This document shows, piece after piece, positions 151 through 32,312 of a stretch of DNA of 37,077 bases. The DNA lies in the IMG/VR virus record IMGVR_UViG_3300044477_000180, positions 1-37,077 of that record, one strand, 5' to 3'. The notes below the pieces were generated by a model. That model had not been told where the DNA came from. It worked only from the letters and a program-made list of their open reading frames with translations, and ran no database searches. Origin of the DNA: a virus (taxonomy: Duplodnaviria; Caudoviricetes). How positions within the stretch are numbered: the stretch's first letter is position 1; each line of letters starts with the position of its first letter. The translations under genes were made by a program, and so were the position numbers.

Positions 151-3100
151 ATGGATTTTGGAAAATACAAAAGTTCTTCTAGTGCTTGGAATAAGTCAGA
201 TGAAGATAGAAAAAAAGAAGAAGAACAACGAGTTAAAGCCGAAAAAGTTCAAGCCATGTTCAATAACATGGCAACTCCTTCTACTGCTCCTATACAAAAA
301 AATAACCTTATCGAATTAAATCAACCTTTATCAAGTAATCTGGTTGATACCTATAATTTAGTACCTAAACTCGAAAATCAACCTTTTAAAAGCACATTGA
401 CAAATAACATAAATCCATTAACTCCACTAAACCCAATTAAAAAAGATGCAAATTTACTCAAAAAACCCGACTTTGTACAGCCAATGACTCCCAAAACTTT
501 TGCAACAGAAAAAGTTATTCCCAAAATAAATACAGCTATAAGCGTAGCTTCGGACATATTAGATAGACCAAGAAACGCACTTGCAGCAGCGCAAGAAGCA
601 GAAACAACAGCAAGAACTAGCACTAATTTTTTACCAAAACAAACAGGTGGAGAAGCACTTATACAAGGACTTTTGGGGAAAAAGAAAACTAGCTTTATCC
701 AAGCTGGATTAGGTAATAAATTAGCTGCAAACTTTGAACAAACAAGTCCTATTATTGCAGGTGTAGGAAATTTTATAGGCGAAGCATTAACGGATCCTAC
801 AAACATACTTGGAACCGAAGCACTGGGAGCAATAGCAAAAGGAACTAAAATAGGAAATAAGGCAATGAACTTAATTCCTTCTATTGCAAAGAAAACGAGT
901 GAAGAAGCTGCATTAAATGCAACAAAACAGTTAGGGAATAAGATAGTTACAAGAGAAAATAATATTACAAACTATCTTAAGAATCTTGAAGCTGAAAAGT
1001 CTTTATTTGATATGGGAAAAAACTATCTTAATACTACAGACAAGAGTAATTTTGTAAAGTCTGACTTAAGAAATGTTCCATATTCTAAAACATTACAAAA
1101 CTTAAAGCAAGAACTGGATCCTAATGTTATAAAATCTAACTTACAAAATGTTAATGATACAGCAACTAAGCCACTTACAAGGCAAGAATTTAACACGAAA
1201 TATAAGTTAGACAATAACTTAGTAGGATTAACTCCAGAACAATCCAATTCCTTAGCAAGAGAAAGTGTAAACAAATTACAACAAGACATTGGAACAAGGG
1301 TTATAAATCGACTTGGTACTACAGATATGCAACAAATTGCAGACTTTTATAAGCAAAAATATAACCTTCCTAATATAACTGTTGTGGAAGGCAAAGTTAA
1401 GGGTAATCTTAGTACAAGTGCTATTAGCCCAAATAGGGATCTATCTGGATATACGATAACTATAGATCCAAACAAACTATCTACATTAGAACATAAAGTT
1501 GGCGTTTTAAGGCATGAAATAGAACATAGTATAGATTTAGCAAGCAATTATAAACCTGATGTAGTTAGTAGAAAAGGCGTAATACCTAGTACAGTAGATC
1601 AATTATATACTCAGGGAAGTAAAGGACATCACAAGAATTATGATTGGTTTGAGGCTGATTATTTGTATAATAGGACTAATCAAGATTTAGGGCTAGATAA
1701 TACTATTCCTAGTAATCAAATGCCAACACAAAATATTCAAACTCCAGGTCAACCACCTATTTTAGAAACTGCTAAAACATTACCACAGAAACAGTTACAA
1801 CAAAGTTTACCTATATCAAATAGTGACAAATTAGCTTTGGGAAATACTCCACAAGTAAATGCAACTCCAAATAATTTGCAAGTTGCTACAAAAATAGAGT
1901 CGAGCATACCAAGCAAAGAAGTTATTCCATTTGATCAAGGAAAAAACTTAAATCCTCAACAAAGCATTGGTAATGTTGACATAAAAAAAGAAGCTAATAA
2001 TACAATAAAAGCTATTGATGATACTTTTAGCTTAAATCCTAAAAAGACAAATATTGAACCAGTTCTAAAAGAAAGAGGATTTTCCAAAAATGTTCGAAGC
2101 GATGCTAATATGCATGCAGATATTAGAGAAAGTTTTGACGAAAATCCATTAATGAAAGATACTTTGACGAATAAAACTACAGTGGAAAAAGCTCAACAAC
2201 GCTATAATAAGGGTTTTGATATTGCCCTGAAGGAGTTAGAAAATAGTTCAAAAACTTTAGATTCTAGCGATGTTCCCCTTGCTAGAATGTTAGCCAACGA
2301 TGCTGCAAATAGAGGAGATATTGACACAGCAAGAGCAATAATTTCTAATATTGCAGAAAAGTTGACGGAGACAGGTAGGTTTAGTCAAGCTGCTAGAATT
2401 CTTAGAAAGTCAGATCCTATCGTGTTCGAAAATTATATTACAAAAAACATCGATAAGCTAAATAAAGAAGGACAAAAAGTCTATGGTACAAAGTGGAAGG
2501 ATTTACAACTTAGTAGTGATATAGTTGACGAAATTTATAACATGAAATATCTTGATGAAGCTGCTAGAGAAAAAGTTATGAATAGTGTTCACGATAGATT
2601 AGCGCAAGAAATTCCAGTAACTAAGCTAGAAAAATTTAATACTTGGCGCAGAATGGCAATGTTGCTTAATCCTACTACTCATGTTAGAAATGTAGTTGGT
2701 AATGCTTTAGTTGTACCCCTTCGAAAGTCTAGTGATACAATGGCAGCAGTTTTGGAAAAGGCTTTCGTGAAAAATGGCGAAAAAACAAAAGGGTTTGGAT
2801 GGTCATTTAATAAAGATATAAAGAAATTAGTGAATGATGATTGGGATAATGTTGCAAAAGCTGATTTGACAACTAATAGCAAATATAAATCAGAAACTTT
2901 GGGAAGCTTAGAAGCTAATAAACCTATTTTTAAGAACAAACAACTTGAAGGATTAAACAAACTATCTAATTTTCTACTAGATGCTGGAGATACTCCATTC
3001 GTAAAACGTGCGTACGAAGATGCTTTGGGTGGATATTTGCAGGCAAATAAATTAAATAATGTAACCGATGCTGCTAGGGAATACGCAAAAAGAAGAGCAT

Positions 3101-5660: not shown

Positions 5661-5735
5661 ATTCCTTGATCAAATAGATACTATTTTTAGTCATGCAATA
5701 AAAATAAAAAGTGTTTCTATCTGATTAAGGTAAAA
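5661..5735. repeat. Dispersed inverted-repeat element, copy A
   Basis: TTCCTTGATCAAATAGATAC ... TTTCTATCTGATTAAGGTAAA, with the same arms as at 11551 and 24994. Confidence 0.9.
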
Positions 5736-5796
5736 ACAATAATATTTCAACAAAACATTTCTAAATAATATGTATATAACTACAATTCACGTTCTA

Positions 5797-5855
5797 AAAA
5801 TGTAAAAATGGTACTATGATTTTTACATTTTACATGTTATAATTAATTTGTCGAA
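5797..5855 (+). promoter_or_regulatory. Extended -10 promoter (TGTTATAAT, 5835-5843) with an upstream inverted repeat and a downstream Spo0A-box-like TGTCGAA (5849-5855)
   Basis: AAAATGTAAAAAT/ATTTTTACATTTT inverted repeat, TG-n-TATAAT, and RBS AAGGAG before 5886. Confidence 0.6.
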
Positions 5856-6472: not shown

Positions 6473-6913
6473 ATGATTAGTAATCAGGAGCTAAAGGAAA
6501 TTTTAGAAGATATAGAAAATGATAGGGATTATTTATTGGCTTGTGTTTTAAGTTATACAAGATTTGAGTTGAAAGAAATTAGATACTGGACAAAAAGGGA
6601 TTACATCGAAAAAACAAAGGATCCATTTACAGCTCCAGGAATGAGAAATAAAAGAGCTGTACAGTTTGTAAATACAAAAGATATGAATTGCTTGCTTTTC
6701 GAAAGTGGTAAGCAAGGAAGTTTATCAAAAACACAAATTTATAGAATATTTTATAATTTTGGAATAACCACTAAACAATTAAGAAAGTATTATTTTCATT
6801 CTTACATAACACAACACAAAGTGAATGTTTTTAGCTTGGAAGTTTTGGCAAAATTATGTAATAAAACACTTTTTGAAATGTTTAGATTTGCTGAAATAGC
6901 AGTAGAAAAATAA
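6473..6913 (+). CDS. Degenerate tyrosine-recombinase (integrase catalytic core)-like protein, probably catalytically inactive
   Basis: RDYLL..LSYTRFELKEI (box I-like, Arg lost), LLFESGKQGSLSKTQIYRI, KQLRKYYF (HxLR lacking His). Ends before the box carrying the catalytic Tyr. Confidence 0.6.
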   Translation: MISNQELKEILEDIENDRDYLLACVLSYTRFELKEIRYWTKRDYIEKTKDPFTAPGMRNKRAVQFVNTKDMNCLLFESGKQGSLSKTQIYRIFYNFGITTKQLRKYYFHSYITQHKVNVFSLEVLAKLCNKTLFEMFRFAEIAVEK

Positions 6914-7049: not shown

Positions 7050-8486
7050 ATGAAAAATAATAAAGATTATATTCTTGATTTTCTATTTTATGGCGGTATG
7101 TTAGTCTCAATGATTTTTACAATTTTACTTTTTATTACAATAGGAAGTAATGCGATAGAAAAGGCTGCTTGGGTATTGGCAGCAATATTAATGGATCTTG
7201 GAAAGGGTGAAAGTGGCTCTAGAGGTATTGCAATGCTACTAGATTACAATACTTGGAAAACTAGTAGAGGTAAAAAATACTTATTGATTATATTGGCATT
7301 ATTTTGTTTTTCAACAATCGTATATTTTGGACTTGCTTATATAAGTTTAAAGGCAAGCGAGGGCGCGCAAATAAATGGAGTACAGGCATTACAAAAGAAA
7401 AATTACGAGAAGAGTACAGGGAAATCCACTCGTGATGAATTAATAAAAGAATGTGATGATAAAGATGCTATATATCAAGAATCTCTCAAAACCGCACAAT
7501 TAACACTTAACAAGCTAATTGAAAACAATGGAATCGCAAATAATCAAAACGCTGGAAGCGATGCTGAAATAAACAAAAGAATTGAAGATAATAACAAAAT
7601 TATTACAGATGCTAACAATGAGAGAAAGCAAGCACTCATAAATAATCCAAAGTTGAAAGACGAAGGAACATTACTTAGTGGAATATCTAAAAAGATAGCC
7701 AATGCTAATGCCCAAATAAAAAGCGATAAAGAACTACTAGGAAAAGGATCAGCAAAATTGAGTGATACGACGCTGGCAGAAAAATCAGTATCAGATGTAA
7801 AAGCTGATATTGAAAAAAATGACAATTATAAAAAGGGTTTGCTAGATGGAACAATACAAATAACTACAGAAGGAACTAAATCTGATATTAAAACAGCTCA
7901 AGAAGTACAGTTTAAAACGGAAAAAGAAAGAAATAACTTTTATTTTTTTGTAGCATTAATGCTAGAAGTTTTGGTAGTTTGGGCAGGAATGTCCAGAAGA
8001 CTAAGAAGAAATAAAAGAGATAAAGAACCTATTTTTAACAAAATAAATGAAGAAAAGGACAATGAAAAAATAAATAAATTTGATCAAAAAAAAGAAGTGG
8101 AGAATAAAGAAATGATTGATTTAGGTAAGCTGTTCAAAAAGGAAGCTAAGAAAGTAGATGTTGAAGAGAAAAAAGAAATCAAACCAAAAGAATATAAAAT
8201 ACCATATTCTAGTTTAAGAGAAGAAACTTTAAGCCCAAAATTGGAAATTAAACAGGAAGAAAATAAAGAAGAAAAACAAGAATTTAAGAACAATGATTTA
8301 GATGAACTAGAAAAAAAAGCGATTGAATTTTCAGAAAATGGCAAACTTCTTTCTCATGTAAGATTAGCAGAAAAGTTAAACATTTCAAGAACACAGGTCA
8401 TAAAACTTTACTACAAAATGGAACAAACAGGTAAAGCTGAGACAAGATTTATTGGAGATAAGCCAATCGGAACTTGGTTAATTTAG
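7050..8486 (+). CDS. Multi-pass membrane protein with long coiled coil and C-terminal winged HTH
   Basis: About 3 N-terminal hydrophobic segments, ~200-aa coiled coil, a TM segment (FYFFVALMLEVLVVWAG) followed by RRLRRNKR, and C-terminal LSHVRLAEKLNISRTQVIKLYYKMEQTG. Confidence 0.75.
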   Translation: MKNNKDYILDFLFYGGMLVSMIFTILLFITIGSNAIEKAAWVLAAILMDLGKGESGSRGIAMLLDYNTWKTSRGKKYLLIILALFCFSTIVYFGLAYISLKASEGAQINGVQALQKKNYEKSTGKSTRDELIKECDDKDAIYQESLKTAQLTLNKLIENNGIANNQNAGSDAEINKRIEDNNKIITDANNERKQALINNPKLKDEGTLLSGISKKIANANAQIKSDKELLGKGSAKLSDTTLAEKSVSDVKADIEKNDNYKKGLLDGTIQITTEGTKSDIKTAQEVQFKTEKERNNFYFFVALMLEVLVVWAGMSRRLRRNKRDKEPIFNKINEEKDNEKINKFDQKKEVENKEMIDLGKLFKKEAKKVDVEEKKEIKPKEYKIPYSSLREETLSPKLEIKQEENKEEKQEFKNNDLDELEKKAIEFSENGKLLSHVRLAEKLNISRTQVIKLYYKMEQTGKAETRFIGDKPIGTWLI

Positions 8487-8519: not shown

Positions 8520-8701
8520 ATACTTTTTCAAAAATGAAAAACAATGAGCGTATACGTTGTTGTACGTTGATGTAAGAATGTTGTACATAAATCGCTTAAA
8601 TCGACTTTTGTAATATTTGTAAATGTCGTTAAGTAATACAATTGTAATAACAAAAAATAACAAAATAAATAATGAATTAAATTACAAGGAGATGTTTTTT
8701 T

Positions 8702-9181
8702 ATGGAAATAACACAAGAATTTTTAAACAAATTATCAAGTGAAGTTAATGTTATTGGATGGAATAGTGTTTTACAATTTTATCAAATTAAAAGCAAAGAT
8801 AAATATGAAACTGTAAAGTATATTAAGACAATGTTAGATAGCAATAAGAATGTAAAAATTGGATATAATCCTACTAAAACAAATAAGAAAATTACCAATA
8901 CAAAAATTGTAAATCAGACAAAAAAGAGTATTCCTTTATCAAAAAAAGAAGAAAAGAAACTTAACGCAAAAAAGTCGACTGTCAAAACTTCTAAAGGATC
9001 CTTCTTAGCTTCTCCACGAAAAAATAAAAAATATACATATAAGAAGAAAATCGATATCAAAAAAACTACAGGTATTAAATATTATATAGAAAGATTCTTA
9101 CTATTTTGCTTCTCTTGTTTCTGTATTTACGAAATATTCCTATTTTTAAAATTTTGCCAAAATAATATAGTTATAAAATAA
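8702..9181 (+). CDS. Lys-rich protein with C-terminal membrane anchor
   Basis: RBS AAGGAG, basic middle region, C-terminal FLLFCFSCFCIYEIFLFL. Confidence 0.7.
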   Translation: MEITQEFLNKLSSEVNVIGWNSVLQFYQIKSKDKYETVKYIKTMLDSNKNVKIGYNPTKTNKKITNTKIVNQTKKSIPLSKKEEKKLNAKKSTVKTSKGSFLASPRKNKKYTYKKKIDIKKTTGIKYYIERFLLFCFSCFCIYEIFLFLKFCQNNIVIK

Positions 9182-9277: not shown

Positions 9278-9655
9278 ATGAAAAATTTAGAAGAAAGAAT
9301 TATAAGTGCATTTTGTAAAAGGATAACAGAATTGAAAGATATTAAGGAAGAAATTAAAAACAAAGAATTAACTATAGAAGATGCACAATATGAAATAGAA
9401 ACATTTTTACCAAAAATTAAAAGTGAACTAAAAATGTTAAATGAAATGTTTATAACTAACTTTATTATCGAAACAAACGAAATAGAAGACTATAAAATGC
9501 CACTTTGGTATCAATCATATGCAGTTTTACAAAAGTTACTTATAGAAGTCGAAGTTAAGTTAGAATTAGAATTGGAAAGACTTATACTTATAGAAGTCGA
9601 AGTTAAGTTAGAATTAGAATTGGAAAGACTTATTAAGTTAGAATTGGAAAAGTGA
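9278..9655 (+). CDS. Hypothetical coiled-coil protein with duplicated C-terminus
   Basis: RBS AAGGAG; LIEVEVKLELELERLI occurs twice. Confidence 0.75.
   Translation: MKNLEERIISAFCKRITELKDIKEEIKNKELTIEDAQYEIETFLPKIKSELKMLNEMFITNFIIETNEIEDYKMPLWYQSYAVLQKLLIEVEVKLELELERLILIEVEVKLELELERLIKLELEK
9537..9632 (+). repeat. 48-bp perfect tandem duplication (2 copies plus a partial third)
   Basis: TACTTATAGAAGTCGAAGTTAAGTTAGAATTAGAATTGGAAAGACTTA x2. Confidence 0.9.
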
Positions 9656-9662
9656 GGATAAT

Positions 9663-9890
9663 ATGAATATATTTAAAAATCTAAGACTATCTAAGGGATT
9701 GAGCCAGAGCGATCTGGCAGTCCTTTTTGAGGTCAAAAAGGATACGATTTCTAGAGCTGAACGTGAAGATGGGCTTATAACGGATCAAATGTTATGGTGG
9801 TATGCAGAGTTTTTTAATTATAACATTGCTGATTTATATATGACTTCCAGAAAAAAATTTTTTGAAGAAATGGAGAAAAAGTATGCATAG
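9663..9890 (+). CDS. XRE/Cro-like HTH transcriptional regulator
   Basis: FKNLRLSKGLSQSDLAVLFEVKKDTISRAE. Confidence 0.9.
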   Translation: MNIFKNLRLSKGLSQSDLAVLFEVKKDTISRAEREDGLITDQMLWWYAEFFNYNIADLYMTSRKKFFEEMEKKYA

Positions 9891-10512
9891 GGATATAGAT
9901 TTAGCAAAGCAAAATTTGAGCCTTTTTGACTACTTAGGACGTCCAGAATCAAAAAGGTATAGTAATAATACTCTCAGATTAAAAACTTGTCCTATGTGCC
10001 AAAAAACTAATGTATATCATTTCGTTATTTACTTGAATACAAACACATATTCTTCTTTTAATCATTGCTGCAAAGGTGGAGACATATTGAACTTTATGGT
10101 AGAGGTTGAAGGGAGAACAAACATAGAAGCAGTAAAAAGACTCTTAGAGGCTACAAATATAAAAAATGATATAATTAGACATGTTCCAAAAAAACCTCGT
10201 CAATTTAAAGAATTTTACGCAAAATTGACGGATGAGTTTAAACGTTGGTCTAAGAATCTAGAAATAGCAAAAGAGAAAATGGACTGTGATAGAATTTTAT
10301 TTTGTGAGTTGAATAGAAATTTTTTTGATCAAATAACTGATGAGTTCATCAATAATGGTTATTTTGAAAGAAATGACTATTTAGTAGGTTTAGAAGATGG
10401 AATAAAAGAAAATTATAAAAAAAATGTTCTTGATATATATAACATTATAAAAGGTAAGCAAGAAAAAACTGTAAAAAATTTTATAATTTGTAGAATTCCA
10501 AAAGGATATTAA
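9862..10512 (+). CDS. CHC2-type (primase-like) zinc-finger protein; start probably ATG 9883
   Basis: CPMC...HFVIY...HCCKGGDILNF...AVKRL. No TOPRIM motif seen. Confidence 0.75.
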   Translation: MKKWRKSMHRDIDLAKQNLSLFDYLGRPESKRYSNNTLRLKTCPMCQKTNVYHFVIYLNTNTYSSFNHCCKGGDILNFMVEVEGRTNIEAVKRLLEATNIKNDIIRHVPKKPRQFKEFYAKLTDEFKRWSKNLEIAKEKMDCDRILFCELNRNFFDQITDEFINNGYFERNDYLVGLEDGIKENYKKNVLDIYNIIKGKQEKTVKNFIICRIPKGY

Positions 10513-11545: not shown

Positions 11546-11632
11546 AAAGATTCCTTGATCAAACAGAGTGATTTAGAGTTTTAGCACTAGACAAGAAATT
11601 GTATCTATCTGATTAAGGAAAAATACTTAACT
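11546..11632. repeat. Dispersed inverted-repeat element, copy B
   Basis: AAAGATTCCTTGATCAAACAGA ... GTATCTATCTGATTAAGGAAAA. Confidence 0.9.
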
Positions 11633-11721: not shown

Positions 11722-12097
11722 ATTAGTAACTAAAAGTAACTAAGAGTAACTAACCTATAGTTACTACTCTAGCCCTGTTATATAAGTAGTTACAAGTACT
11801 AGTAACTAATAGTAACTAAAATAAAAGTGTATGTCTACGTTAGAAAAAAATAATAAATATTATATATAGATAGTTAATTTTTAAATTAGTTACTATTAGT
11901 TACTAATCCTTGTAACCAATAGTATAACAGGGCTAGGGTAGTAACTATTGCTTGTAACAACTAGTTACTACTATTACATTTTAAATTAGTTACTTTTAGT
12001 TACTATTTGATTGAAACCGTTTATTTTACTTGATTACAACTATTAGTAACTAATTAGTTACTATTTTTATTTATAGTTACTAATTTATAGTTACTAA
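11722..12097. repeat. Putative replication origin: AGTAACT/AGTTACT iterons in a long imperfect palindrome around an AT-rich core
   Basis: More than 15 heptamers, many at 10-bp spacing. Arms about 11758-11826 and 11879-11947 (TAGCCCTGTTATA/TATAACAGGGCTA). Lies just upstream of the helicase operon. Confidence 0.8.
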
Positions 12098-12140
12098 TTT
12101 GTTTTTTTTATATTACTGATTATAATTGGAATATATTTCA

Positions 12141-12169
12141 TTGACTGTTGTAAAACAGTGTAATACAAT
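12141..12169 (+). promoter_or_regulatory. SigmaA promoter TTGACT-N17-TACAAT with ACTGTT/AACAGT inverted repeat
   Basis: Consensus-like boxes and spacing upstream of GGAGGTG RBS. Confidence 0.7.
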
Positions 12170-12215
12170 AGTCTTACAGTTTAAAAATAGTAACTAATTT
12201 AGTGGAGGTGTAAAA

Positions 12216-14224: not shown

Positions 14225-14458
14225 ATGCCATGGATGACTCCATACATAGAATATTTAAAAACATTTGGTAGAGAAGATTTTTTGAATGTGTGTGAATCTA
14301 CTAAAACAAAAAGGACGAAAAATTTAGAAATTAAAGCAAATGAAAAAATAAATATAAAAAACAAAGTAAAAGAATTAAGAAATAGAGGATTAAAAGTTAA
14401 AGAAATATCAAAAATACTTAACTTGAGTATGAGTCAGGTTAACAGACGATTAAAATGA
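14225..14458 (+). CDS. Small HTH DNA-binding protein
   Basis: ELRNRGLKVKEISKILNLSMSQVNRRLK. Start uncertain. Confidence 0.65.
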   Translation: MPWMTPYIEYLKTFGREDFLNVCESTKTKRTKNLEIKANEKINIKNKVKELRNRGLKVKEISKILNLSMSQVNRRLK

Positions 14459-14778: not shown

Positions 14779-14793
14779 ATAGATATGTTTTAT

Positions 14794-14850
14794 AACGCAA
14801 CTTAAACTTGTTTCTATTGATCAAGGAAATAACTTTAAGTTGCGTTTTTT
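14794..14850 (+). terminator. Long terminator hairpin containing a copy of the dispersed motif
   Basis: AACGCAACTTAAA/TTTAAGTTGCGTT 13-bp stem plus T tract; TCTATTGATCAAGGAAA lies inside. Confidence 0.8.
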
Positions 14851-14884
14851 ATTACTCAAAGCTCCAAACTAAACATTACAATCA

Positions 14885-17335: not shown

Positions 17336-17357
17336 ACGAAACTAAAAATGTATCTAT

Positions 17358-17915
17358 TTGATTAAGGAGAAATATATGACTGCTACAAAAAAGAAGTCAA
17401 AAAAACAAATAAGTAAAGAAATAATCGAAATATTAGATAGTATAGTTATAATATGTGATACAAGAGAACAGGAAAACACACATATTACAAAAGTTTTTGA
17501 AAAATGCAATATTAAAAATATTAGAAGTGGCTTAAAATTTGGAGACTATAGCTTTTTTTGTGGAAGTACTGGCGAAAGATTTGATCAACAAATTGTAATA
17601 GAACGAAAAAATTCAATTGATGAATTATCACAAAATTTTACAAAAGGTAGAAAACAGTTTGAGAATGAAATGCAGAAAGCAAAGCAAGAAAATTGTAGGT
17701 TTATACTTTTGGTAGAAAATAGTAGTTATATAGATATCCTTAATCATAATTATAGATCAGAACTAACATCAAAATCTTTTGTATCTAGCCTATTAACGTA
17801 TCAAACTAGATACAATATATCTATAATTTTCATGGAAGGTATATGTAGTGCAAACTACATATATAATACTTTCAAATATTTTTTAAGAGAAAAATTAAAG
17901 GAGGAATTATTTTGA
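17358..17915 (+). CDS. ERCC4/XPF-domain nuclease (likely resolvase); true start probably ATG 17376
   Basis: DTREQ, GDY and IERK motifs; AAGGAG precedes ATG 17376. Confidence 0.9.
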   Translation: MIKEKYMTATKKKSKKQISKEIIEILDSIVIICDTREQENTHITKVFEKCNIKNIRSGLKFGDYSFFCGSTGERFDQQIVIERKNSIDELSQNFTKGRKQFENEMQKAKQENCRFILLVENSSYIDILNHNYRSELTSKSFVSSLLTYQTRYNISIIFMEGICSANYIYNTFKYFLREKLKEELF

Positions 17916-19662: not shown

Positions 19663-19677
19663 AGTTGTTTTCCTTGA

Positions 19678-19866
19678 TCAAGGGATAAGTTTTTGTTGCC
19701 TGATAGTTAGACCTGGATAATCTTTAGACAAGTAACTATAGAGTATATTACTTATTTGCTGGCTTCTTGTTATTTCATTCTCTCTAGCTTCAATATCAAG
19801 AACTTCCAATAACCTTTCTGAAATTGTAATATTAATATTCTTTTTTCCTTTTTTTATTGTTCCCAC
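19678..19866 (-). CDS. Ribbon-helix-helix (CopG/Arc/MetJ-like) regulator
   Basis: KKNINITISERLLEVLDIEARENEITRSQQISNIL; RBS AAGGAAG; own promoter. Confidence 0.85.
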   Translation of the reverse strand: MGTIKKGKKNINITISERLLEVLDIEARENEITRSQQISNILYSYLSKDYPGLTIRQQKLIP

Positions 19867-21214: not shown

Positions 21215-22601
21215 AAATATTGAAATAGTTTGGAGTCCTCAACCAAAGCAAAAAATATTTTTGAGTCGTTGTGAGTTCGAAGTTTTATACGGTGGAGCCG
21301 CTGGAGGAGGAAAGAGCGATGCGATTCTAGTAGATGCGTTGAGACAAATTAAACACAAAAGTTATAGAGCTATAATATTCAGAAAAACATATCCTCAGCT
21401 TACAGAACTTATAGATAGAGCTTTAGAGTTATATAAGATAATTTGTCCTAGTGTAAAATTTAATGATTCAAAACATGTTTTTAGCTTCCCTTCAGGGAGC
21501 AAAGTATATTTTGCTTCAATGCAACATACCAAGGACAAAACCAATTATCAAGGAAAACAATTCCAGTTTATTGGAATTGATGAATTAACACATTTTGTAG
21601 AAGAAGAGTATATGTATTTATTATCTAGATGTAGAGCAAGGGCAGCAGGCTTAAGATGTTATATGAGAGGAACAGCTAACCCTGGGGGAGTCGGGCATGG
21701 ATTTGTAAAAAGTAGGTTTATTGATCAAGGAGCTTTTAAAACAGTTAATGAATTTTACGTTTATAAACAAAAGGTTATGATTAGAGATAGAATATTTATT
21801 CCTGCTAGTTTGTTCGATAATTCTAAACTTCTAGAAAATGATCCCAACTATTTAGCTAACTTAATGATGCTTCCAGAAAAAGAGAAGAATGCATTATTGG
21901 GAGGAAGCTGGGAAGAGTATGCAGGACAATATTATCCAGAGTTTCGAAGCAACACGCATGTTATAATACCTTTTGAAATTCCTAGCAATTGGGTTAAATT
22001 TCGGAGTCTAGACTATGGTCTTGATATGACTGCCTGTTATTGGTGGGCAGTGGATACGAAAGGATATTGTTATATTTACAGGGAATTATATCAATCAAAT
22101 TTAAGTTTATCTCAATCAGCAAAAAAGATTGTGGAGTTGACTAACAAAGATGAAGAAATTGCATATACTGTATGTTCACCTGATTTATGGAATAGACGCC
22201 AAGAATCAGGTGAAAGTGGACAAGAAATAATGATAAAATCAGGACTTAGGAATTTAATAAAGGCTAATGATAGTAGAGTCCAAGGGTGGAGAACATTGCG
22301 AGAGTATTTAATGTTTTATGATAGTGGCATTGAGAATAAACCAAGAATTAATATTTTTCAAAATTGTGTTAACTTAATTAGGTGTTTTCCACTATTGCAA
22401 CATGATGAAAAAAATGTTGAAGATGTTGCCAATACTCCACATGAAATAACACACGCTCCTGAATCAATACGTTATGGGATAATGTCACGTCCTAAACTTA
22501 GTGTTATTACCAAAAAAGTAATACCTCAATGGGAGAGCGAAAAACCAAAAGTTAACAATTTTACTGGTGGTGAACCTACCAGTTCATGGATAAATTATTA
22601 A
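21201..22601 (+). CDS. terL: Terminase large subunit
   Basis: YGGAAGGGKS, IGIDE, TANPGG, RSLDYG and HAPESIRY motifs. Confidence 0.95.
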   Translation: MKTDKNIEIVWSPQPKQKIFLSRCEFEVLYGGAAGGGKSDAILVDALRQIKHKSYRAIIFRKTYPQLTELIDRALELYKIICPSVKFNDSKHVFSFPSGSKVYFASMQHTKDKTNYQGKQFQFIGIDELTHFVEEEYMYLLSRCRARAAGLRCYMRGTANPGGVGHGFVKSRFIDQGAFKTVNEFYVYKQKVMIRDRIFIPASLFDNSKLLENDPNYLANLMMLPEKEKNALLGGSWEEYAGQYYPEFRSNTHVIIPFEIPSNWVKFRSLDYGLDMTACYWWAVDTKGYCYIYRELYQSNLSLSQSAKKIVELTNKDEEIAYTVCSPDLWNRRQESGESGQEIMIKSGLRNLIKANDSRVQGWRTLREYLMFYDSGIENKPRINIFQNCVNLIRCFPLLQHDEKNVEDVANTPHEITHAPESIRYGIMSRPKLSVITKKVIPQWESEKPKVNNFTGGEPTSSWINY

Positions 22602-22618
22602 TAAAAGAAGGTGAGTAA

Positions 22619-22852
22619 ATGGATAAATTAATATTTTTTTTGTATAACATAATTGGATTAGTTGTTGGAATGTTAATCTATAGATATGGATTTGTAGAGG
22701 GTCAGAGGGTTAGTAAGGGATTACCTATTGACTCTATTGTAAAGAAAAAAGAATCTAAAAAAATAGAGTTAGATAAGGATCCTATAATTGAGGGTTGGGA
22801 TAACATAATGGCTTATACGGGAGAACCACAAAAAGGAAGTAAGGAGGAATAA
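22619..22852 (+). CDS. Small N-terminal-TM protein between TerL and portal
   Basis: Hydrophobic N-terminus; GWDNIMAY motif. Confidence 0.7.
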   Translation: MDKLIFFLYNIIGLVVGMLIYRYGFVEGQRVSKGLPIDSIVKKKESKKIELDKDPIIEGWDNIMAYTGEPQKGSKEE

Positions 22853-22855
22853 ACA

Positions 22856-24604
22856 ATGCCAAGTATAAATAATAGTAGTAGCAATAATTATAGCGATATT
22901 TCGGCTGATTGGAAAGATTATCAAGCAGGGATAGACTACAAGAGAAGGATAGATTTATATGCAACAGTGGATAAAAACGAGCGTATGTATGCAGGGGATC
23001 AGTGGAATGGTGTAAAAAACAATGGCTTACCTACTCCAGTTTTCAACATTATAAAGCGTGTAATAAACTACTTTATTGCTGCATTAGTAAGTCAACCTTA
23101 TAAAATGCAATTTAGCACATATGATGGAATCGCTGAAGATGAACAGGCAAAAAACTTAACTAGATATATAGATCAAAAGTGGGAGTTTGATAAATTGAAT
23201 GGTCTAATCATGAAAGGTTTGCTTGATGCAGCTGTAAGCGGTGATTTATCTTTTCACACTTATTGGAACACTAAAGCCTATGTCGATGGAATAACTGAAG
23301 GGGATTTTGAAGTTGAAAAGGTAGATAATGTTAATGTGCTCTTTGGCAATCCTAATTCAAACATAGTAAACAAGAATGGTAGACCATACCAGCCTTATAT
23401 CCTTGTTGCTGGAAGAGAAACGGTGTTTAATCTAAAGGCAGAAGCACGAAAAAATGGCATTAGTGAAGATAAAGTCATGCAAATAGTCGCTGATAGCGAC
23501 TATACTAACCAATCTGGGGACAGAGGAAAATATGAGCTTGATGGTAAAGAGGATAATATTTCTAAAGCTACTTATGTTGTAAAATATTATCTAAATGAAG
23601 AAACTAATACAATATTTATGCGAAAAAGTATTAGGGTATGCCAGTTAACAAAAGATGTAGATACGGAGTTGCAGCTTTATCCTATTTGCTGGATGAACTG
23701 GGATGAACGAAAAAATAGTTATCATGGTCAAGCTCCTATCACAGGCATTATTCCTAACCAAATTTACATAAATAAACAATTTGCAATGATAATGAAACAC
23801 ATGATGGATACAGCATTGTCGAAAGTAATCTATGATAAGCATAGAATAACAGCATGGTCTAATGAAGTAGGAGTTGCAATTGGTTGTGAGGGTGATATTA
23901 CAGGAGCAGCGCAAACACTTCCAGTTGGTCAAATGAGTTCGGGGATCCTTGATATTATAAACACAACAATTTCTTTAACCAAAGATTTATTAGGCGCTAC
24001 AGATGCAGCGTTGGGCAATGTAGCAGCAGACAATACGAGTGCAATAATAGCAGTACAAAAAAGCAGTGCCGTACCTCTCGAAATCATTAAGGCTAATATG
24101 ATGCAATTCATAGAAGATCTAGGTTATATCTGGTTAGACTTTGTTAGAGCAAAATATATAACTCCTCGTACTGCTACAATTCAGGAGGATGGAGAAACAA
24201 AGCAAGTAGAGGTTGGTGGAAAACAGGATTTACGGTATAGAATTAAAGTAGATGTTGGAGCTTCGACTATGTGGAGCGAACTAACAGCATTGCAAACACT
24301 AGATAATTTATTAAGTGCTGATAAAATAACATTTATACAGTATTTACAAAGAGTTCCAAATGGAATTATTCCTGAAAAACAAAAATTAATTGATGAATTA
24401 AACCAACAATTAGAACTAGAACAACAACAATTGCAGCAACAGCAAGGGCAACAACAAAACATGGATTATGAACAAATGGCACAATTTATGGAAACGTTAC
24501 CAGAAGAAGAGCAAATTAGATTACAGCAAATGGATCCTTCTCAAATGGAAGCGGCGCTAAAAGTAATGCAACAACAACAATTACAAATGAGTCCACAAAA
24601 ATAG
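22856..24604 (+). CDS. Portal protein (P22-like) with Gln-rich C-terminus
   Basis: YAGDQW, PVFNII and IPNQ.YINK motifs; 582 aa; follows TerL. Confidence 0.88.
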   Translation: MPSINNSSSNNYSDISADWKDYQAGIDYKRRIDLYATVDKNERMYAGDQWNGVKNNGLPTPVFNIIKRVINYFIAALVSQPYKMQFSTYDGIAEDEQAKNLTRYIDQKWEFDKLNGLIMKGLLDAAVSGDLSFHTYWNTKAYVDGITEGDFEVEKVDNVNVLFGNPNSNIVNKNGRPYQPYILVAGRETVFNLKAEARKNGISEDKVMQIVADSDYTNQSGDRGKYELDGKEDNISKATYVVKYYLNEETNTIFMRKSIRVCQLTKDVDTELQLYPICWMNWDERKNSYHGQAPITGIIPNQIYINKQFAMIMKHMMDTALSKVIYDKHRITAWSNEVGVAIGCEGDITGAAQTLPVGQMSSGILDIINTTISLTKDLLGATDAALGNVAADNTSAIIAVQKSSAVPLEIIKANMMQFIEDLGYIWLDFVRAKYITPRTATIQEDGETKQVEVGGKQDLRYRIKVDVGASTMWSELTALQTLDNLLSADKITFIQYLQRVPNGIIPEKQKLIDELNQQLELEQQQLQQQQGQQQNMDYEQMAQFMETLPEEEQIRLQQMDPSQMEAALKVMQQQQLQMSPQK

Positions 24605-24616
24605 AAAGGGGATCGT

Positions 24617-24823
24617 ATGGATAGTTTGAATCAAAATATTTTAGTTTTTAAAGGCAATGAGAGTGAGGAAATATTGAATTTATCAGTAATGGAGCGTATT
24701 ATAAAAGATATTCAAAGCCTAAAATTTGATGGTATAAATGACTATCAGTCTTTGGGATTGGATCAAGCTATAGAAGTTGTCAAAAGTTATAATACTTCAG
24801 GAGCATTTTTAAAAATTGATTGA
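24617..24823 (+). CDS. Hypothetical protein
   Basis: RBS AAGGGG. Confidence 0.65.
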   Translation: MDSLNQNILVFKGNESEEILNLSVMERIIKDIQSLKFDGINDYQSLGLDQAIEVVKSYNTSGAFLKID

Positions 24824-24837
24824 TAGGAGAAGCTAAG

Positions 24838-24939
24838 ATGAAAGATAAAAAATGTAATGATGATAAAATTAAACCTGTAAAGTCTAAATCTATGTCTATT
24901 GTTTCGAAAAAGAAAGAGACCAAAACTAAGAAAAAATAA
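24838..24939 (+). CDS. 33-aa highly basic (Lys-rich) peptide (not in the ORF track)
   Basis: RBS AGGAG; MKDKKCNDDKIKPVKSKSMSIVSKKKETKTKKK. Confidence 0.55.
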   Translation: MKDKKCNDDKIKPVKSKSMSIVSKKKETKTKKK

Positions 24940-24950
24940 AATATATGTAA

Positions 24951-24983
24951 GAAAGAGTCTAATTTAAGATTGGATTCTTTTTT
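24951..24983 (+). terminator. Intrinsic terminator
   Basis: AAAGAGTCTAAT/ATTGGATTCTTT stem (with G-U pairs) plus T tract. Confidence 0.6.
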
Positions 24984-24988
24984 AGTTT

Positions 24989-25070
24989 AAAGATTCCTTG
25001 ATCAAATAAAGATTAGTTTTACATCGAAATAAAAATCATATCTATCTGATCAAGGAAAATTTCTTTAACT
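24989..25070. repeat. Dispersed inverted-repeat element, copy C
   Basis: AAAGATTCCTTGATCAAATA ... TATCTATCTGATCAAGGAAAA. Confidence 0.9.
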
Positions 25071-25100
25071 TGCATACAAATTTAATTTTTAAGAGTATAA

Positions 25101-25242
25101 TTTAACTATGTTTTTTTGGTTTGTAATTTACAAAACTGGAAATAGAATCGCACTATTAATCTATTCAAAATTACCATAAACCACGAAACATAGTAATAAG
25201 TTAAATCTGAATGTTACATAACGTAATTGTGTAACATTCAGA
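25101..25242 (+). other. Structured leader or candidate ncRNA upstream of the glycosyltransferases
   Basis: Long interrupted hairpin at 25105-25194 and a perfect 13-bp stem at 25206-25218/25230-25242. Confidence 0.6.
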
Positions 25243-25267
25243 AAATTAAACAGAAAAGAGGACTATT

Positions 25268-25882
25268 ATGGAAGCAAGAATTTTACTTGGAATGCCAACT
25301 ACAAAAAATGTTAATTTCGAAACAGTTGCTAGTATGATGGGATTGGGTAGTAGATTTATAACACATACAACTATTATAGATTGTTGTCTAGTTTATAAGG
25401 CAAGGCAACAAATTGTGGAAGAGGCTTTAAAAGCTAATTGTACTCACGTTTTTTTTATGGATTCGGATATGGTTATAAAGTATGGAGATATAGACAAATT
25501 ATTAGAACATAATTTAGACATAGCTTCTATGATGGCATTTAAGAGGACTCCTCCATATAATCCATGCTTTTATAAGGATAAAGTTGGCAATGAGTATATA
25601 CCATGGTATGAGTGGAATAAAGATAGTTTAATAGAGTGTGCTGGGATAGGTTTGGCATGTGCTTTAATCAAAACTAAAGTTTTTGCTAATATAGGACTTG
25701 ACTGCTTTATTCCTAGAGATAATGGCGAAGATATAAGTTTTTGTGAAAAAGCTATAGAATCGGGTTACAATATTTGGGTTGATACTAACTTATGTGCTGG
25801 ACATGTAAGTCAAGAAATAATAGGATCAGCACATTATTTGGCTTATAGAGATAATAAGAGAGGACTTATAGAAAATGAATGA
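25268..25882 (+). CDS. GT-A fold (GT2-like) glycosyltransferase
   Basis: ARQQIV, FFMDSD (DxD), GLACALI, GEDISFC and DT...GH motifs. Confidence 0.88.
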   Translation: MEARILLGMPTTKNVNFETVASMMGLGSRFITHTTIIDCCLVYKARQQIVEEALKANCTHVFFMDSDMVIKYGDIDKLLEHNLDIASMMAFKRTPPYNPCFYKDKVGNEYIPWYEWNKDSLIECAGIGLACALIKTKVFANIGLDCFIPRDNGEDISFCEKAIESGYNIWVDTNLCAGHVSQEIIGSAHYLAYRDNKRGLIENE

Positions 25883-27335
25883 AATTATTGGAATGATGTT
25901 AGTTAAAAATGAAAGTCATAGATATTTAGAACAATCACTAGAACAGATGAAGAAAATTTGTTCTAAAATTATAATTCTGGATGATAACAGTGTGGATAAC
26001 ACTGTGGATATTTGTTCTAGGTATACGGAATTGATTTATCTAGAAAAAGAATTGTCTTTTTCAAAAAATGAATCTAGTATTAGAAACAAGCTGTTAAGGT
26101 TAACATTACAAGAATGTGACAATAACGATTGGATTATGTGTCTTGATGCAGACGAAATAATTGACGAAAAAACTATACCTAACTTATATTCGAATATAAA
26201 TGTCGCTAATACAAACAATATAAATGCTATTGCTTTCCAACTTTTTGATATTTGGACAAGTGGAGAAGATCTAAAATATCGAGAAGATAATTTGTGGAAT
26301 GCACATAAGAGACCTTGGATTATTTGCTGTAGAGTAACTGAGTTGCTTAGGTCTACTTGTATAAATGATAGTAAGCTACACTGTGGAAGGTTTCCCAACG
26401 TTGCGACTGCAATATGGGATGTTGAGTGTTGTGTTAAAGTAAAACACATGGGATGGGCAAAAAAAAGTGATAGGTGGGAAAAATATTCTAGATACATGAA
26501 ACTTGATAAAGACGGTAAAATGGGTAACCTTAATCAGTATAGAAGTATCTTGGACGAGGATCCTGCTTTATATTCTTACAACAATCCAATTAAAAAAGTT
26601 TTAATATGTGCACCAGTAAGAGAAGACAATGACATTTTTGAACTTTACTTAAATGCTCTAGACAATTTAATCATTCCTGAAAATGTTATAGTAGAAAAGC
26701 ACTTTATATTACATAATTCGCCTAATCTAATAGAAATGTGTAATAGTAGAAAAATAAATTATACTATATTTAATTCAGAAAATAATTTTGTGAAGAGTGA
26801 AGATCGTCATAATTGGGACAGAAAGAATGTAGATGATGTAATAGCAATGAAAAATGGACTTGCTGATTTTGCCCTTAGGAATAATTTTGATTATGTTTTT
26901 ATGGTGGATAGTGATGTAATTGTACAGACAAAAACTTTGCTATCTTTGATCAAGGAAGAAAAACAAATTATTTCTGAAATTTTTTGGACTGACTGGGAGA
27001 ACAATGGACTTGATTTACCTAATTGCTGGTACTGGGATTCTTACGGATTTACTATAGCAGCAATGGAGCAATGGAAAGAAAAAGGAGTTTATCTAGTTGG
27101 CATGACAGGAGCATGTATTTTAATAAAAACTGATGTTTACAAAAATTGCAATTATGATAGAATATATAATATAAGCTTTGATGGCGAGGATAGGTTTTTT
27201 TGCATAAGAGCTGCATGTAATAATATAGAAATATATGTAGATACAAAATATCCTGCTACTCACTTATATAGGCAGTCAGACAAGGAAAAATATATAAAAT
27301 CTCTAACCATGAGAGGAGAACAAGTTAATGGCTGA
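25875..27335 (+). CDS. Tandem double-domain GT2-like glycosyltransferase
   Basis: Domain 1: VKNE, LDDNSVD, CLDADE, HCGRFP. Domain 2: FMVDSD, GACILI, GEDRFFC. Confidence 0.9.
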   Translation: MNEIIGMMLVKNESHRYLEQSLEQMKKICSKIIILDDNSVDNTVDICSRYTELIYLEKELSFSKNESSIRNKLLRLTLQECDNNDWIMCLDADEIIDEKTIPNLYSNINVANTNNINAIAFQLFDIWTSGEDLKYREDNLWNAHKRPWIICCRVTELLRSTCINDSKLHCGRFPNVATAIWDVECCVKVKHMGWAKKSDRWEKYSRYMKLDKDGKMGNLNQYRSILDEDPALYSYNNPIKKVLICAPVREDNDIFELYLNALDNLIIPENVIVEKHFILHNSPNLIEMCNSRKINYTIFNSENNFVKSEDRHNWDRKNVDDVIAMKNGLADFALRNNFDYVFMVDSDVIVQTKTLLSLIKEEKQIISEIFWTDWENNGLDLPNCWYWDSYGFTIAAMEQWKEKGVYLVGMTGACILIKTDVYKNCNYDRIYNISFDGEDRFFCIRAACNNIEIYVDTKYPATHLYRQSDKEKYIKSLTMRGEQVNG

Positions 27336-28155
27336 TGAAATTATGGGTAATGTAGAAAATACACAAATAAATGACTCCGTATCACCAAATACGGATAATA
27401 TAGATACAGATAATAGTGTTGATAGTACACAGAATACCAGTGTGGAAAATCAAACTACAGAACAAAAAGAAGAAAACGCAAAGCAGGAAGCTATAAAGGC
27501 TATAAGGGTGAGATACCAACACCAAGATATGGAAATACCTTTAGATCAAGCTCCTACTTATATTCAAAAGGGCTTAAACTATGATAGGGTTTTTGAGTCA
27601 TATCAAACTTTGCAAAATGATCCTAGACTATCATTCGTGGAGAATCTTGCTAAAAGTTATAATATGACGCCTGATGAATATATACAAGCAGTACAAGCAC
27701 AACAAGAACAAGCTAAATTAGATGAGTTGATACAGCAAAATATTCCTGAGCAATATGCTAAGGAAATACTTGAAAATAAAAGGTTTAGAGAAACTTATGA
27801 AAATCAACTCAAAGAAAATGAGTCTAAACAAAAACAAAATCAACAATACAACGAATTTCTAACAGAATATCCAGATATAGACCCACAGTCAATTCCTATC
27901 GAGGTTTGGCAAGAAGTTAACCAGGGCAAACACATTTTAGACGCTTATGCTAAACACGAAAATAAAATGCTAAAACAAGAATTAGCAGCACTAAAAGGAA
28001 ATCAGAAAAATGCTGCTAATAGTCCAAGTAGTTTGACTAGAAATGGTCAATCTAATAGTGCATATTTCACGAAAGCACAAGTAGAAGCAATGTCTCAAAA
28101 GGAAGTGGAATCTAAACTAGATATTATATTACAATCTCAAAAGACATGGAAATAA
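27328..28155 (+). CDS. Capsid scaffolding protein
   Basis: Acidic disordered N-terminus, QKGLNYD, helical; immediately before the capsid gene. Confidence 0.8.
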   Translation: MADEIMGNVENTQINDSVSPNTDNIDTDNSVDSTQNTSVENQTTEQKEENAKQEAIKAIRVRYQHQDMEIPLDQAPTYIQKGLNYDRVFESYQTLQNDPRLSFVENLAKSYNMTPDEYIQAVQAQQEQAKLDELIQQNIPEQYAKEILENKRFRETYENQLKENESKQKQNQQYNEFLTEYPDIDPQSIPIEVWQEVNQGKHILDAYAKHENKMLKQELAALKGNQKNAANSPSSLTRNGQSNSAYFTKAQVEAMSQKEVESKLDIILQSQKTWK

Positions 28156-28185
28156 GAAAAACAAATATGAGGGGAATGATAATAT

Positions 28186-29019
28186 ATGTCATTTAACAAT
28201 TTTATACCTACCGTCTGGAGCGCTCAAATTGCTAGAGATAGGGCAAGAGAAAGCGTTGCTATAAAGAATTGTAACACTGATTATGAAGGTGAAATTGCGG
28301 ACTCTGGTGATAGGGTAGAAATTAATACTGTACCAAGACCAACGATTTCGAATTATGTTAAAGATATTACAGTAATTACACCTGAAAATTTGCAAGGTGC
28401 AAGCACAGAACTTATAATAGATCAATCTAAGTATTTTTGTTTCGAAGTTGATGATATTGATAAGAGGCAGGCAAAAGGTAACTTGATGGACTCAATCAAA
28501 CAGGAAGCAGCAGCAGGCTTGTCTGATGTTGTCGATAGTTATATTTTTGGAAAATATGCCGAAGCTGGTAAAACTATTACAGCGACTTCTTTAACTAGCG
28601 TTCTCTGCATTTCTACAATTATGAGTGCATTAGAACAGTTGTGGAAGAATAATGTTCCCAAAAATGAGATGATAGTTTTAGAAGTTTCTCCAAGTTTCTA
28701 TACTAAAATGGTACTTGCAAAAATTATAAATGTGGAAAAAAACGATGCAACGCTGACTAGTGGTTATGTTGGAAAGTTTCTTAACTTTGAAGTATTTATG
28801 AGTAATAATATTTATAGCTCTGGTGGGTATGACTATTGTTTTGCTAGAACAAAAAAGGCTATAAGTTTTGCAGGAAATATTACAAAAACAGAAGCTTTTA
28901 GGCCTCAATCTAGCTTCAGTGATGCAATAAAAGGTCTAGACGTTTTTGGAGCAAAAGTTATAAGACCAAAAGAGCTTGTTGTTATAAAGGCTAGTTTTGC
29001 AGCAGAAACAACAATCTAA
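28186..29019 (+). CDS. Major capsid protein (P22 coat-like, HK97 fold)
   Basis: FIPTVWSA, DYEGEI..GD.V.I, IDQSKYF and FGAKVIRP motifs. Confidence 0.92.
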   Translation: MSFNNFIPTVWSAQIARDRARESVAIKNCNTDYEGEIADSGDRVEINTVPRPTISNYVKDITVITPENLQGASTELIIDQSKYFCFEVDDIDKRQAKGNLMDSIKQEAAAGLSDVVDSYIFGKYAEAGKTITATSLTSVLCISTIMSALEQLWKNNVPKNEMIVLEVSPSFYTKMVLAKIINVEKNDATLTSGYVGKFLNFEVFMSNNIYSSGGYDYCFARTKKAISFAGNITKTEAFRPQSSFSDAIKGLDVFGAKVIRPKELVVIKASFAAETTI

Positions 29020-29056
29020 GAATTCGATATAATAGGTTTATTTTGATATAGGAAGG

Positions 29057-29422
29057 GTGAAGATTATGGCTTTTACAGCGTCTACGGCAGTAAGAAATAG
29101 TTATGCAACAGTAACAGAATATGCTGCAAATGCATCCGTCGCAATTGACTTTAATCGCATGGATAATAAAGTTATTATAAAAATAAGAAACACAAACGAT
29201 ACCGCTGGAATGACTCTTACAACAGTTGTTGCAGCAGGAGACTTTATGCAAAATACTTTAGGTGTATTGACTTGTACCGCTGCATATAATACAAATATGG
29301 TCATAGGTCCTTTGGATTCTATGAGATTCAAGGACAGTGCAGGAAATGTTAATATTACAAATAGTATTGCAGGTTCAGGAACATTAAGTAATGTTAAGAT
29401 AGCAATTATTAATTTACCTTAA
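29057..29422 (+). CDS. Putative capsid decoration/cement protein (start may be ATG 29066)
   Basis: Small T/A/N-rich beta protein between the capsid gene and a terminator; IGPLDSMRF. Confidence 0.6.
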   Translation: MKIMAFTASTAVRNSYATVTEYAANASVAIDFNRMDNKVIIKIRNTNDTAGMTLTTVVAAGDFMQNTLGVLTCTAAYNTNMVIGPLDSMRFKDSAGNVNITNSIAGSGTLSNVKIAIINLP

Positions 29423-29462
29423 TCAAAAAAAGAAATAAAAATTAAATATATATAGTCCTTAC

Positions 29463-31713: not shown

Positions 31714-32312
31714 TAAAGGAGGGTATTATGACAGCCCAAGAAATATTTGATTTGACTATGTGTTTGATCGATGAGTTAAAGAACGATGGAACCGTAAACG
31801 CTAGTACTACACTAATGTATAGTATAAAGGCTCCAATTTTCTTAAACATTGGACAAATGGAAATAATAAAAGATACAGAGATTACAAAAACATTTGATAC
31901 AGCATTTGCTAATGTTTCAGATGACTGGACATTAATATCTATGCCCTCAGATTTCAAGAACCTTGATCAAATAATCAGTATTGAAAACGACATAGATATT
32001 AGTATAATTGGATCATATCGATGGGAAAAACCAAATTTACTATACATTCACCCAGACTTTGTTGGTACTGTTAGAGTTATTTACAAGCCTATTCCTACTC
32101 AAATTACTAGCCTAACTGATGATATAACCCTAGATAACATGGATAGTGTAACAATGCTAACGCATTATTTAGCTGCATATTTAATTTTAGAGGAAAATCC
32201 AACATTGTCTAATTTTTTCTTGCAAAGATATCAGGAAATGAAAGGCGGAATAAAGCTTAATAGTAAGGCTTTTCAACCGATACATGACCTGTATGGGTAT
32301 TGTGATGGCTGA
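31710..32312 (+). CDS. Head-tail adaptor (T7 gp11/P22 gp4-like); start likely ATG 31728
   Basis: MTAQEI start, MPSDF, and helical LTHYLAAYL; position upstream of the nozzle gene. Confidence 0.7.
   Translation: MIKEGIMTAQEIFDLTMCLIDELKNDGTVNASTTLMYSIKAPIFLNIGQMEIIKDTEITKTFDTAFANVSDDWTLISMPSDFKNLDQIISIENDIDISIIGSYRWEKPNLLYIHPDFVGTVRVIYKPIPTQITSLTDDITLDNMDSVTMLTHYLAAYLILEENPTLSNFFLQRYQEMKGGIKLNSKAFQPIHDLYGYCDG

Follow-up and report, generated by a model that had tools for sequence, protein, structure and literature searches.

CCTTRATCA: a selected DNA word dispersed through a 37-kb phage genome

Introduction

Why would a phage genome carry the same asymmetric nine-base word, CCTTRATCA, at 17 sites, on both strands, between genes and also within them? 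We addressed this question for IMG/VR virus record IMGVR_UViG_3300044477_000180 (Duplodnaviria; Caudoviricetes), all 37,077 nucleotides of which were analyzed (the window). A 127-nt terminal duplication was found at the ends of the record, so the genome is a 36,950-bp circle (30% GC). Our curated set of 50 genes, 48 of them on the + strand, leaves 3,837 non-coding bases (about 10% of the genome). A preliminary description of this DNA had proposed that the copies of the word are binding sites for one protein that acts on the whole genome. This still seems the most economical reading, and it survived two sequence-based refutation tests; the precedents that were offered for it fit poorly.

Results and discussion

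The word is over-represented outside genes and within them

An exact scan found 17 copies of CCTTRATCA (11 of CCTTGATCA and 6 of CCTTAATCA), at all 17 of the positions and strands listed in the preliminary description, which had estimated that about one copy would arise by chance. Markov models of orders 0–4 predict 0.18–0.41 copies of CCTTGATCA and 0.27–0.56 copies of CCTTAATCA. With a combined expectation of about 0.5 (third-order Markov), the excess is about thirty-fold. CCTTGATCA ranks first among the genome's 9-mers (Poisson P = 4e-15), and a reversed control pattern does not occur in the genome. The core is sharply defined, because its one-mismatch neighbors are at background levels (17 versus 14.0 expected). 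The near-miss CCTTTATCA, with 3 copies versus 0.58 expected, may mark weak sites.

Copies do occur both between genes and inside them, as first described, but not uniformly: 11 of the 17 are non-coding or overlap a stop codon or ribosome-binding site (RBS), versus 0.07 expected in the non-coding bases. CCTTRATCA is the leading dispersed 9-mer when non-coding DNA is taken alone, so the coding copies are an independent test. The six copies inside genes compare to 0.57 expected if codon order is shuffled, 1.15 if the protein sequence is held fixed, and 1.38 if codons are conditioned on amino-acid pairs; none of the runs (3,000, 3,000, and 2,000, respectively) reached six. The enrichment thus holds against a codon-shuffled background, a check that the preliminary description had named. 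We reject a chance origin, and we conclude that the CCTTRATCA set is a real, non-random, selected, and lineage-specific DNA word.

Four of the six coding copies need rare codons (chance of 0.008–0.029 each; Table 1). The two others, at 1932 and 21722, are plausibly accidents of the protein sequence. The copy at 17738 was missing from the original list of coding copies, and "adaptor" for the gene at 31728–32312 was a label of that description's own. The copy in that gene lies 11 bp before an 11/12 match to a sigma-70-like promoter.

Table 1. Motif sites, candidate binding proteins, and the origin-like array (window coordinates; HTH, helix-turn-helix; ORF, open reading frame; RHH, ribbon-helix-helix)
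Feature	Position	Strand	Description
Bivalent cassette 1	5662..5732		cores 5664 + and 5722 -; 31-bp AT-rich spacer
Bivalent cassette 2	11551..11620		cores 11553 + and 11610 -; directly left of origin-like array
Bivalent cassette 3	24994..25057		cores 24996 + and 25047 -; upstream of glycosyltransferase-capsid genes; both kept in L001
Half cassette	17336..17369	-	full-length arm, core 17359; overlaps RBS of ERCC4 gene
Single intergenic site	14818..14826	-	in loop of terminator-like hairpin (folded region 14790-14855, z -7.2)
Palindromic double core CCTTGATCAAGG	19672..19683		after terminator-like hairpin; overlaps stop codon of RHH gene 19678-19866 (-)
Single site	29417..29425	+	overlaps stop codon of ORF 29057-29422; precedes terminator-like hairpin at 29463
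Near-miss CCTTTATCA	8933..8941	+	also 325 + and 31711 -
Coding copy	1932..1940	-	1390-aa gene, FDQG; 0.56 chance from protein alone
Coding copy	17738..17746	+	ERCC4 nuclease gene; rare codons, 0.008 chance
Coding copy	21722..21730	-	TerL, IDQG; 0.28 chance from protein alone; kept in L001
Coding copy	26528..26536	+	GT2 glycosyltransferase gene; rare codons, 0.027; kept in L001
Coding copy	26947..26955	-	GT2 glycosyltransferase gene; rare codons, 0.025; kept in L001
Coding copy	31961..31969	+	gene 31728-32312 (phrog_13046); rare codons, 0.029
Lead candidate binder	7050..8486	+	478-aa membrane protein, long coiled coil, C-terminal winged helix (residues 412-478)
Second candidate binder	6473..6913	+	146-aa tyrosine-recombinase-like domain; in operon downstream of cassette 1
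Third candidate binder	14225..14458	+	77-aa protein, weak C-terminal HTH match
Origin-like array	11724..12196		all 14 genome copies of TAGTAACTA; separate motif from CCTTRATCA

Sites are bipartite, and six of them form three cassettes

The full site is about 20 bp and has two parts, the strict 9-bp core and a looser tail (ATAGAWAC). Five non-coding copies match RATAGATAC at 8–9 of 9 positions, while coding copies match at 2–5 of 9, against a background mean of 2.9. The extended form that had been described for the best copies is exact at 5662 and 11601 (the 20-mer TTCCTTRATCARATAGATAC) and at no other site; the palindrome described at 19672 is present.

Six copies form three converging pairs (5664/5722, 11553/11610, and 24996/25047). 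Among 19 intergenic gaps of at least 40 bp, all three of those over 400 bp hold a converging pair, and 4 of the 16 others hold a site. The pairs align as homologous cassettes of about 65–70 bp, in which two converging arms of about 20 bp (CCTTGATCAAA on the left, CCTTRATCAGATAGA on the right) surround an AT-rich spacer of 24–31 bp with a T-tract and an A-tract; the site at 17359 resembles the right half of a cassette alone. This bivalent structure is newly resolved here. Cassette 1 lies in the 457-bp gap that separates the lysis genes from the early operon. Near cassette 2, a leftward promoter is predicted (-35 at 11542), and the left core of the cassette lies 11 bp upstream of it.

Conservation and distribution

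One relative, locus L001, is 92% identical in nucleotide sequence over 21164–29085 and keeps all 5 of the copies covered. For the sites at 17359 and 17738, relatives are contigs from four runs. The 17359 core is unchanged in the three relatives that cover it, amid surrounding divergence of 6–11%, with individual P values of 0.34–0.58 and with part of the core being the RBS; in one of these relatives (X5), 8 bases of the tail are lost. At 17738, X2 and X5 have an identical core, and X4 differs only at the R position. Coding copies are thus mostly kept in relatives, as the preliminary description would predict, and this weakly supports the motif.

Outside of these relatives, the 20-mer had no matches in viral contigs. 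The paired pattern had 48 matches in viral contigs, and apart from L001, 47 of 47 neither aligned to the genome nor held more than 4 cores. A stricter paired pattern had 18 matches in GTDB, all of which are unrelated hairpins or repeats with 2–3 cores. Among 121 loci related by TerL, capsid, or helicase, most of which are much shorter than the genome, only L001 has more than two cores. Cassette 1 had no informative match in annotated phages, and among the literature matches listed for the motif text, there was no related paper.

Other words are dispersed in other phages. Loci L140, L141, and L188 have strongly over-represented dispersed 9-mers (AACGGCAAA, 11–17 copies; CCGTTAACG, 8 copies), and L141 is the sole locus of the 121 whose dispersed 9-mer is stronger than that of the present genome.

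Orientation, promoters, and spacing

Although 48 of 50 genes are on the + strand, the copies are split 8:9 across the strands. Stoperator-like silencing, as in mycobacteriophage L5, had been suggested. Phages of Cluster A, L5 among them, do have more than a dozen asymmetric sites genome-wide, many of them intergenic, but L5 stoperators follow the direction of transcription and fail when reversed (PMC9283540). In contrast, six of the present sites are inside genes. Because their orientation is uncorrelated with transcription, these are not L5-type stoperators.

Sites are not enriched near predicted promoters (3 versus 3.06 expected for promoter scores of at least 10; 6 versus 8.9 for scores of at least 9). 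This negative is soft, as consensus promoter prediction is weak at 30% GC (117 predictions, against 117.6 in shuffles). For the strongest promoter matches between genes (9206, 12141, 19918, and 19928), the nearest exact site is 229–2333 bp away.

The largest gap between copies is 6,921 bp, in line with the limit of about 7 kb in the preliminary description. Spacing tends to be even (coefficient of variation [CV] = 0.64, P = 0.078 for 13 loci), and more so if the three CCTTTATCA near-misses are added post hoc (CV = 0.56, P = 0.012). Both orientations occur on both sides of the origin-like region (11.7–12.2 kb), and this lack of strand skew counts against a KOPS-like translocation signal, another of the roles that had been suggested. 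The phi29 parS sites that had been offered as a precedent for tethering or partition are host Spo0J/parS palindromes, and there are none such here: the best match in the genome to the 16-bp parS consensus has 3 mismatches and is inside a gene. The lack of polarity and of promoter enrichment, the spacing, and the lack of parS together lead us to lean from promoter control towards a position-tolerant role in handling the genome. This lean is limited, because distant KorB sites can still silence.

We tried and rejected two local readings of the motif. As a fixed-distance promoter element, it fails in that -10-like hexamers follow it at no constant offset; as an extended Shine-Dalgarno sequence, it fails in that only 1 of the 17 copies precedes a start.

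Candidate binding proteins

Both of the phage proteins that had been named as possible binders are real, as a membrane protein with a coiled coil and a winged HTH (wHTH) and as a dead tyrosine-recombinase-like protein; as binders, they are candidates. In the lead candidate, three hydrophobic peaks stand out clearly (at windows that start at 11, 78, and 297), and a coiled coil is confidently predicted. Its winged helix, modeled with a predicted local distance difference test score (pLDDT) of 73–83, has weak likeness to CodY and to GntR-type winged helices and is probably cytoplasmic. In 4 of 6 relatives, the wHTH is identical at 66–67 of 67 positions, even though the coiled-coil region is identical at only 125–126 of 193. 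In the 2 others, the wHTH is replaced (39 of 64 identical in P0130), and yet the coiled-coil region of P0130 matches that of P0006 at 192 of 193 positions. The wHTH varies independently of the rest of the protein, as would be expected of a module that sets specificity, but this pattern could also stem from linkage or from a local target. The nearest ESM Atlas clusters of this protein are unnamed, and 2 of 3 are mostly viral. It had no plasmid match.

The second candidate has an Atlas feature score of 0.96 to clusters of PF00589, with only 154–159 of 256 features shared, and has no Pfam match. Aligned with the four motif-keeping tyrosine recombinases of genome G002, it has replacements of the first arginine, both histidines, and the tyrosine, so only the second arginine is left. 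We found three homologues of it and one representative. Its structural model (pLDDT 45, best Z 4.2) is too poor for a test of fold, and fold searches with either of these two proteins gave no match at E <= 0.001. In eukaryotes, catalytically dead recombinase domains became DNA-binding regulators, including Ndc10 (PMC3212892). Among the matches listed, no paper describes dead recombinases as phage repressors. Neither the genes for these two proteins nor the helicase gene had relatives in scans of viral contigs. The third candidate is identical on four contigs.

A phage-encoded protein might tether the circle

Our best explanation, which we hold tentatively and which could well be wrong, is that the 17 copies are the binding site of one phage-encoded protein that coats an extrachromosomal circle and tethers or segregates it. 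Such a protein would grip the circular genome every 2–3 kb. The bivalent cassettes, whose two arms flank a bendable AT-rich spacer in the manner of P1 parS, would be high-affinity sites for nucleation, and single copies would be secondary contacts. If the lead candidate is the binder, it would hold copies of the genome at the membrane without a motor ATPase. The phage would probably persist as an unintegrated, plasmid-like circle: genome proteins had no PF00589 or PF00239 match (integrase or resolvase), nor matches at E <= 0.001 to ParB (PF02195) or ParA (PF13614).

Several points weigh against this explanation. Binding by a protein, the phage origin of that protein, and the unintegrated, plasmid-like circle are all things that we infer. 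Known dispersed asymmetric sites in temperate phages (P1 and L5) are repressor sites, so the prior favors silencing. For the strict motif, the evenness of the spacing falls short of significance. In L001, the chance that the nine synonymous codons would all be unchanged is 0.08–0.14, which is only suggestive, and X3 has lost the 17738 core by one base. As for the lead candidate, the wHTH of P0006 may be identical because it is linked to the next gene, and tandem repeats just downstream of the wHTH gene (about 8551–8590; TACGTTG units with a period of about 10 bp) could be the real target. Finally, a relative that apparently carries the other wHTH allele (a 37,524-bp contig) still encodes NLDQ at the 31961 site and apparently also has the 14225 HTH protein; this would be consistent with a different binder.

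A bolder version, which we think doubtful, is inheritance without a motor. A membrane-anchored winged helix, possibly with the dead recombinase, would read a nine-base address, even by way of recoded genes, to tether, segregate, or intercept the genome at the membrane, and swaps of the wHTH would create specificity groups. Among the matches listed, no paper describes a phage-plasmid segregation protein that is a membrane-anchored winged helix. Where dispersed phage motifs have a known role, it is mainly as repressor sites (P1, L5); others lack an explanation (Cluster K). The present motif fails the polarity test and shows no link to predicted promoters, and yet there is selection for it within genes. 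A tethering code, if that is what it is and if a membrane-anchored winged helix reads it, would account for the persistence of small phage circles without an integrase or a partition ATPase, and it would give a function to proteins with a transmembrane segment, a coiled coil, and a wHTH.

Alternative explanations

The close rival is genome-wide silencing or immunity, which is possible, if on balance unlikely: one phage repressor on all of the sites would stop lytic transcription by roadblock, looping, or spreading. P1's C1 has 22 dispersed asymmetric 17-bp operators (PMC8546580), and repression by KorB acts over distances of 45 to more than 1000 bp (10.1101/2024.02.16.579611). Of the pairs, one is upstream of the early operon, one is at the origin region, and one is upstream of the capsid genes; a single site is on an RBS, two are on stop codons, and three abut predicted promoters; and the phage encodes several small HTH or RHH proteins. 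Against silencing are the lack of polarity, the (soft) lack of promoter enrichment, and the lack of a ParB-type clamp domain. As in P1, there are many asymmetric sites of about 17–20 bp over what may be a plasmid-like phage genome, but the sequence differs and no C1-like protein was found. Given the lack of polarity and of enrichment at predicted promoters, a P1-type operator reading appears to be unsupported.

An improbable alternative is that the sites serve a host protein (Chi-, KOPS-, Noc-, or ParB-like) and have built up in the phage. Like phi29 (PMC2731898), the phage may respond to host regulators, given Spo0A boxes near two motif copies. (Two of the three TGTCGAA consensus boxes, at 5849 and 14895, are in early promoter regions, both after AATT and 77–127 bp from a motif copy; they hint at a spore-forming host.) Yet the 12-mer TCCTTRATCARA, with 8 copies in 37 kb (about 216 per Mb), has at most 13 copies, and at most 10 per Mb, in each of 251 sampled genomes from the class of locus L105, although it is usually more common there than its reversed control. 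A 16-mer occurs once each in 8 of 401 sampled genomes, and the lack of strand skew also argues against a host signal. L105 itself (in G001, a Clostridia metagenome-assembled genome) has 13 copies of the 12-mer; the locus viewed (9280–9400) does not resemble the phage cassettes, being a palindromic repeat element.

It is quite improbable that a small repeated cassette, similar to PeSLs (PMC2839356), multiplied at module junctions and acts as an RNA or single-stranded DNA hairpin or as a recombination point, with no need for a common binder. The three pairs and the 17359 half do have spacer features in common and can be aligned as homologues, each pair folds into a hairpin (z -2.4 to -5.6), and L001 has an insertion of about 190 bp beside cassette 3. 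(This segment, at 3826–4017 of L001, is missing from the present genome and adjoins the cassette; short direct repeats flank it and it contains a long perfect hairpin.) But a proliferated cassette leaves the isolated copies and the four rare-codon copies unexplained. Wobble pairs show no consistent strand preference, the stems are not followed by a U-tract, and no Rfam family matched at the gathering score (one match had 29.9 bits versus a cut-off of 90).

A packaging or entry signal, with multiple TerS initiation sites or handholds for pulling DNA into the cell, would fit the P22-like portal, the circular assembly, and sites on both strands genome-wide, but it is very improbable, as established pac systems use one site or one cluster, and such a signal would not be expected to be concentrated in control regions and bivalent cassettes. 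We leave only a slight chance for other explanations.

Comparison with known systems

If the sites tether the circle, their closest functional counterparts would be found in plasmid-like elements with dispersed sites (P1 C1, KorB/OB, and the architecture of P1 parS). KorB of RK2 acts at a distance from dispersed OB sites and has a dual role in inheritance and silencing (10.1101/2024.02.16.579611), and P1 parS has two arms around a bendable center (PMC5016525). Unlike those systems, the present one has no ParB or ParA domain, and its core is not the known palindrome. It does not belong to the ParABS family, because ParA and ParB genes were looked for and not found.

The SAS and ESAS of Cluster K phages are also alike in having 11–19 asymmetric copies, imperfect inverted pairs with a variable spacer, and an unexplained function (PMC3203893), but SAS are just upstream of start codons and in one orientation. 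PeSLs, phi29, and SpdB2 are looser parallels. phi29 is a Bacillota phage with dispersed cis sites, the parS sites and 0A boxes involved in spore entrapment (PMC2731898), and Spo0A boxes are found at early promoters here; on the other hand, the present motif is not enriched in the sampled genomes of the host class, and the genome has no close parS match. SpdB2, from Streptomyces plasmids and actinophages, is an integral membrane protein that forms oligomers and has a coiled coil, on a mobile element (PMC4447253). In contrast to the lead candidate, to which it has no sequence match, its coiled coil is N-terminal, and it has no known genome-wide set of sites.

Genome context

Other genes that we identified encode TerL, a P22-like portal, the major capsid protein, two glycosyltransferases, a BhlA holin, and an amidase; no tRNA was found in the genome. 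Phage DNA is present in runs from sediment, freshwater, and soil metagenomes. The capsid gene had no relatives in a scan of GTDB. The host is probably clostridial, because of the plasmid matches of the helicase-like gene at 12361 (only five Clostridium records, at 26–30% identity), the Bacillota Atlas clusters of the gene at 6473, and the BhlA holin. The Clostridium record that we examined is a phage-plasmid with an actin-like gene and an RHH gene between its lysis and early genes; in the present phage, this slot is occupied by the wHTH and dead-recombinase genes.

The TAGTAACTA array, which precedes an AbrB/MazE-like gene and the helicase-like gene, is likely to be the replication origin. A 75-nt inverted repeat lies within it (11752–11826 and 11879–11953, 85%). 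A CHC2 zinc-finger protein (9883–10512) and the helicase-like protein (12361–14094) are encoded by separate genes here; in the Clostridium phage-plasmid L097, CHC2, Toprim, and P-loop domains are fused in one protein, and the present genome has no Toprim match. An inverted repeat with AAAATGTAAAAAT arms (5796–5832) covers the -35 region of the promoter at 5838, which is of the extended -10 type, and is a separate candidate for a classical operator. The two glycosyltransferase genes (25268–27335) are between the portal and capsid genes and possibly glycosylate the capsid. The ORF at 9278–9655 contains an exact 48-bp tandem duplication (9537–9633), and the protein of relative P0170 is 16 amino acids shorter.

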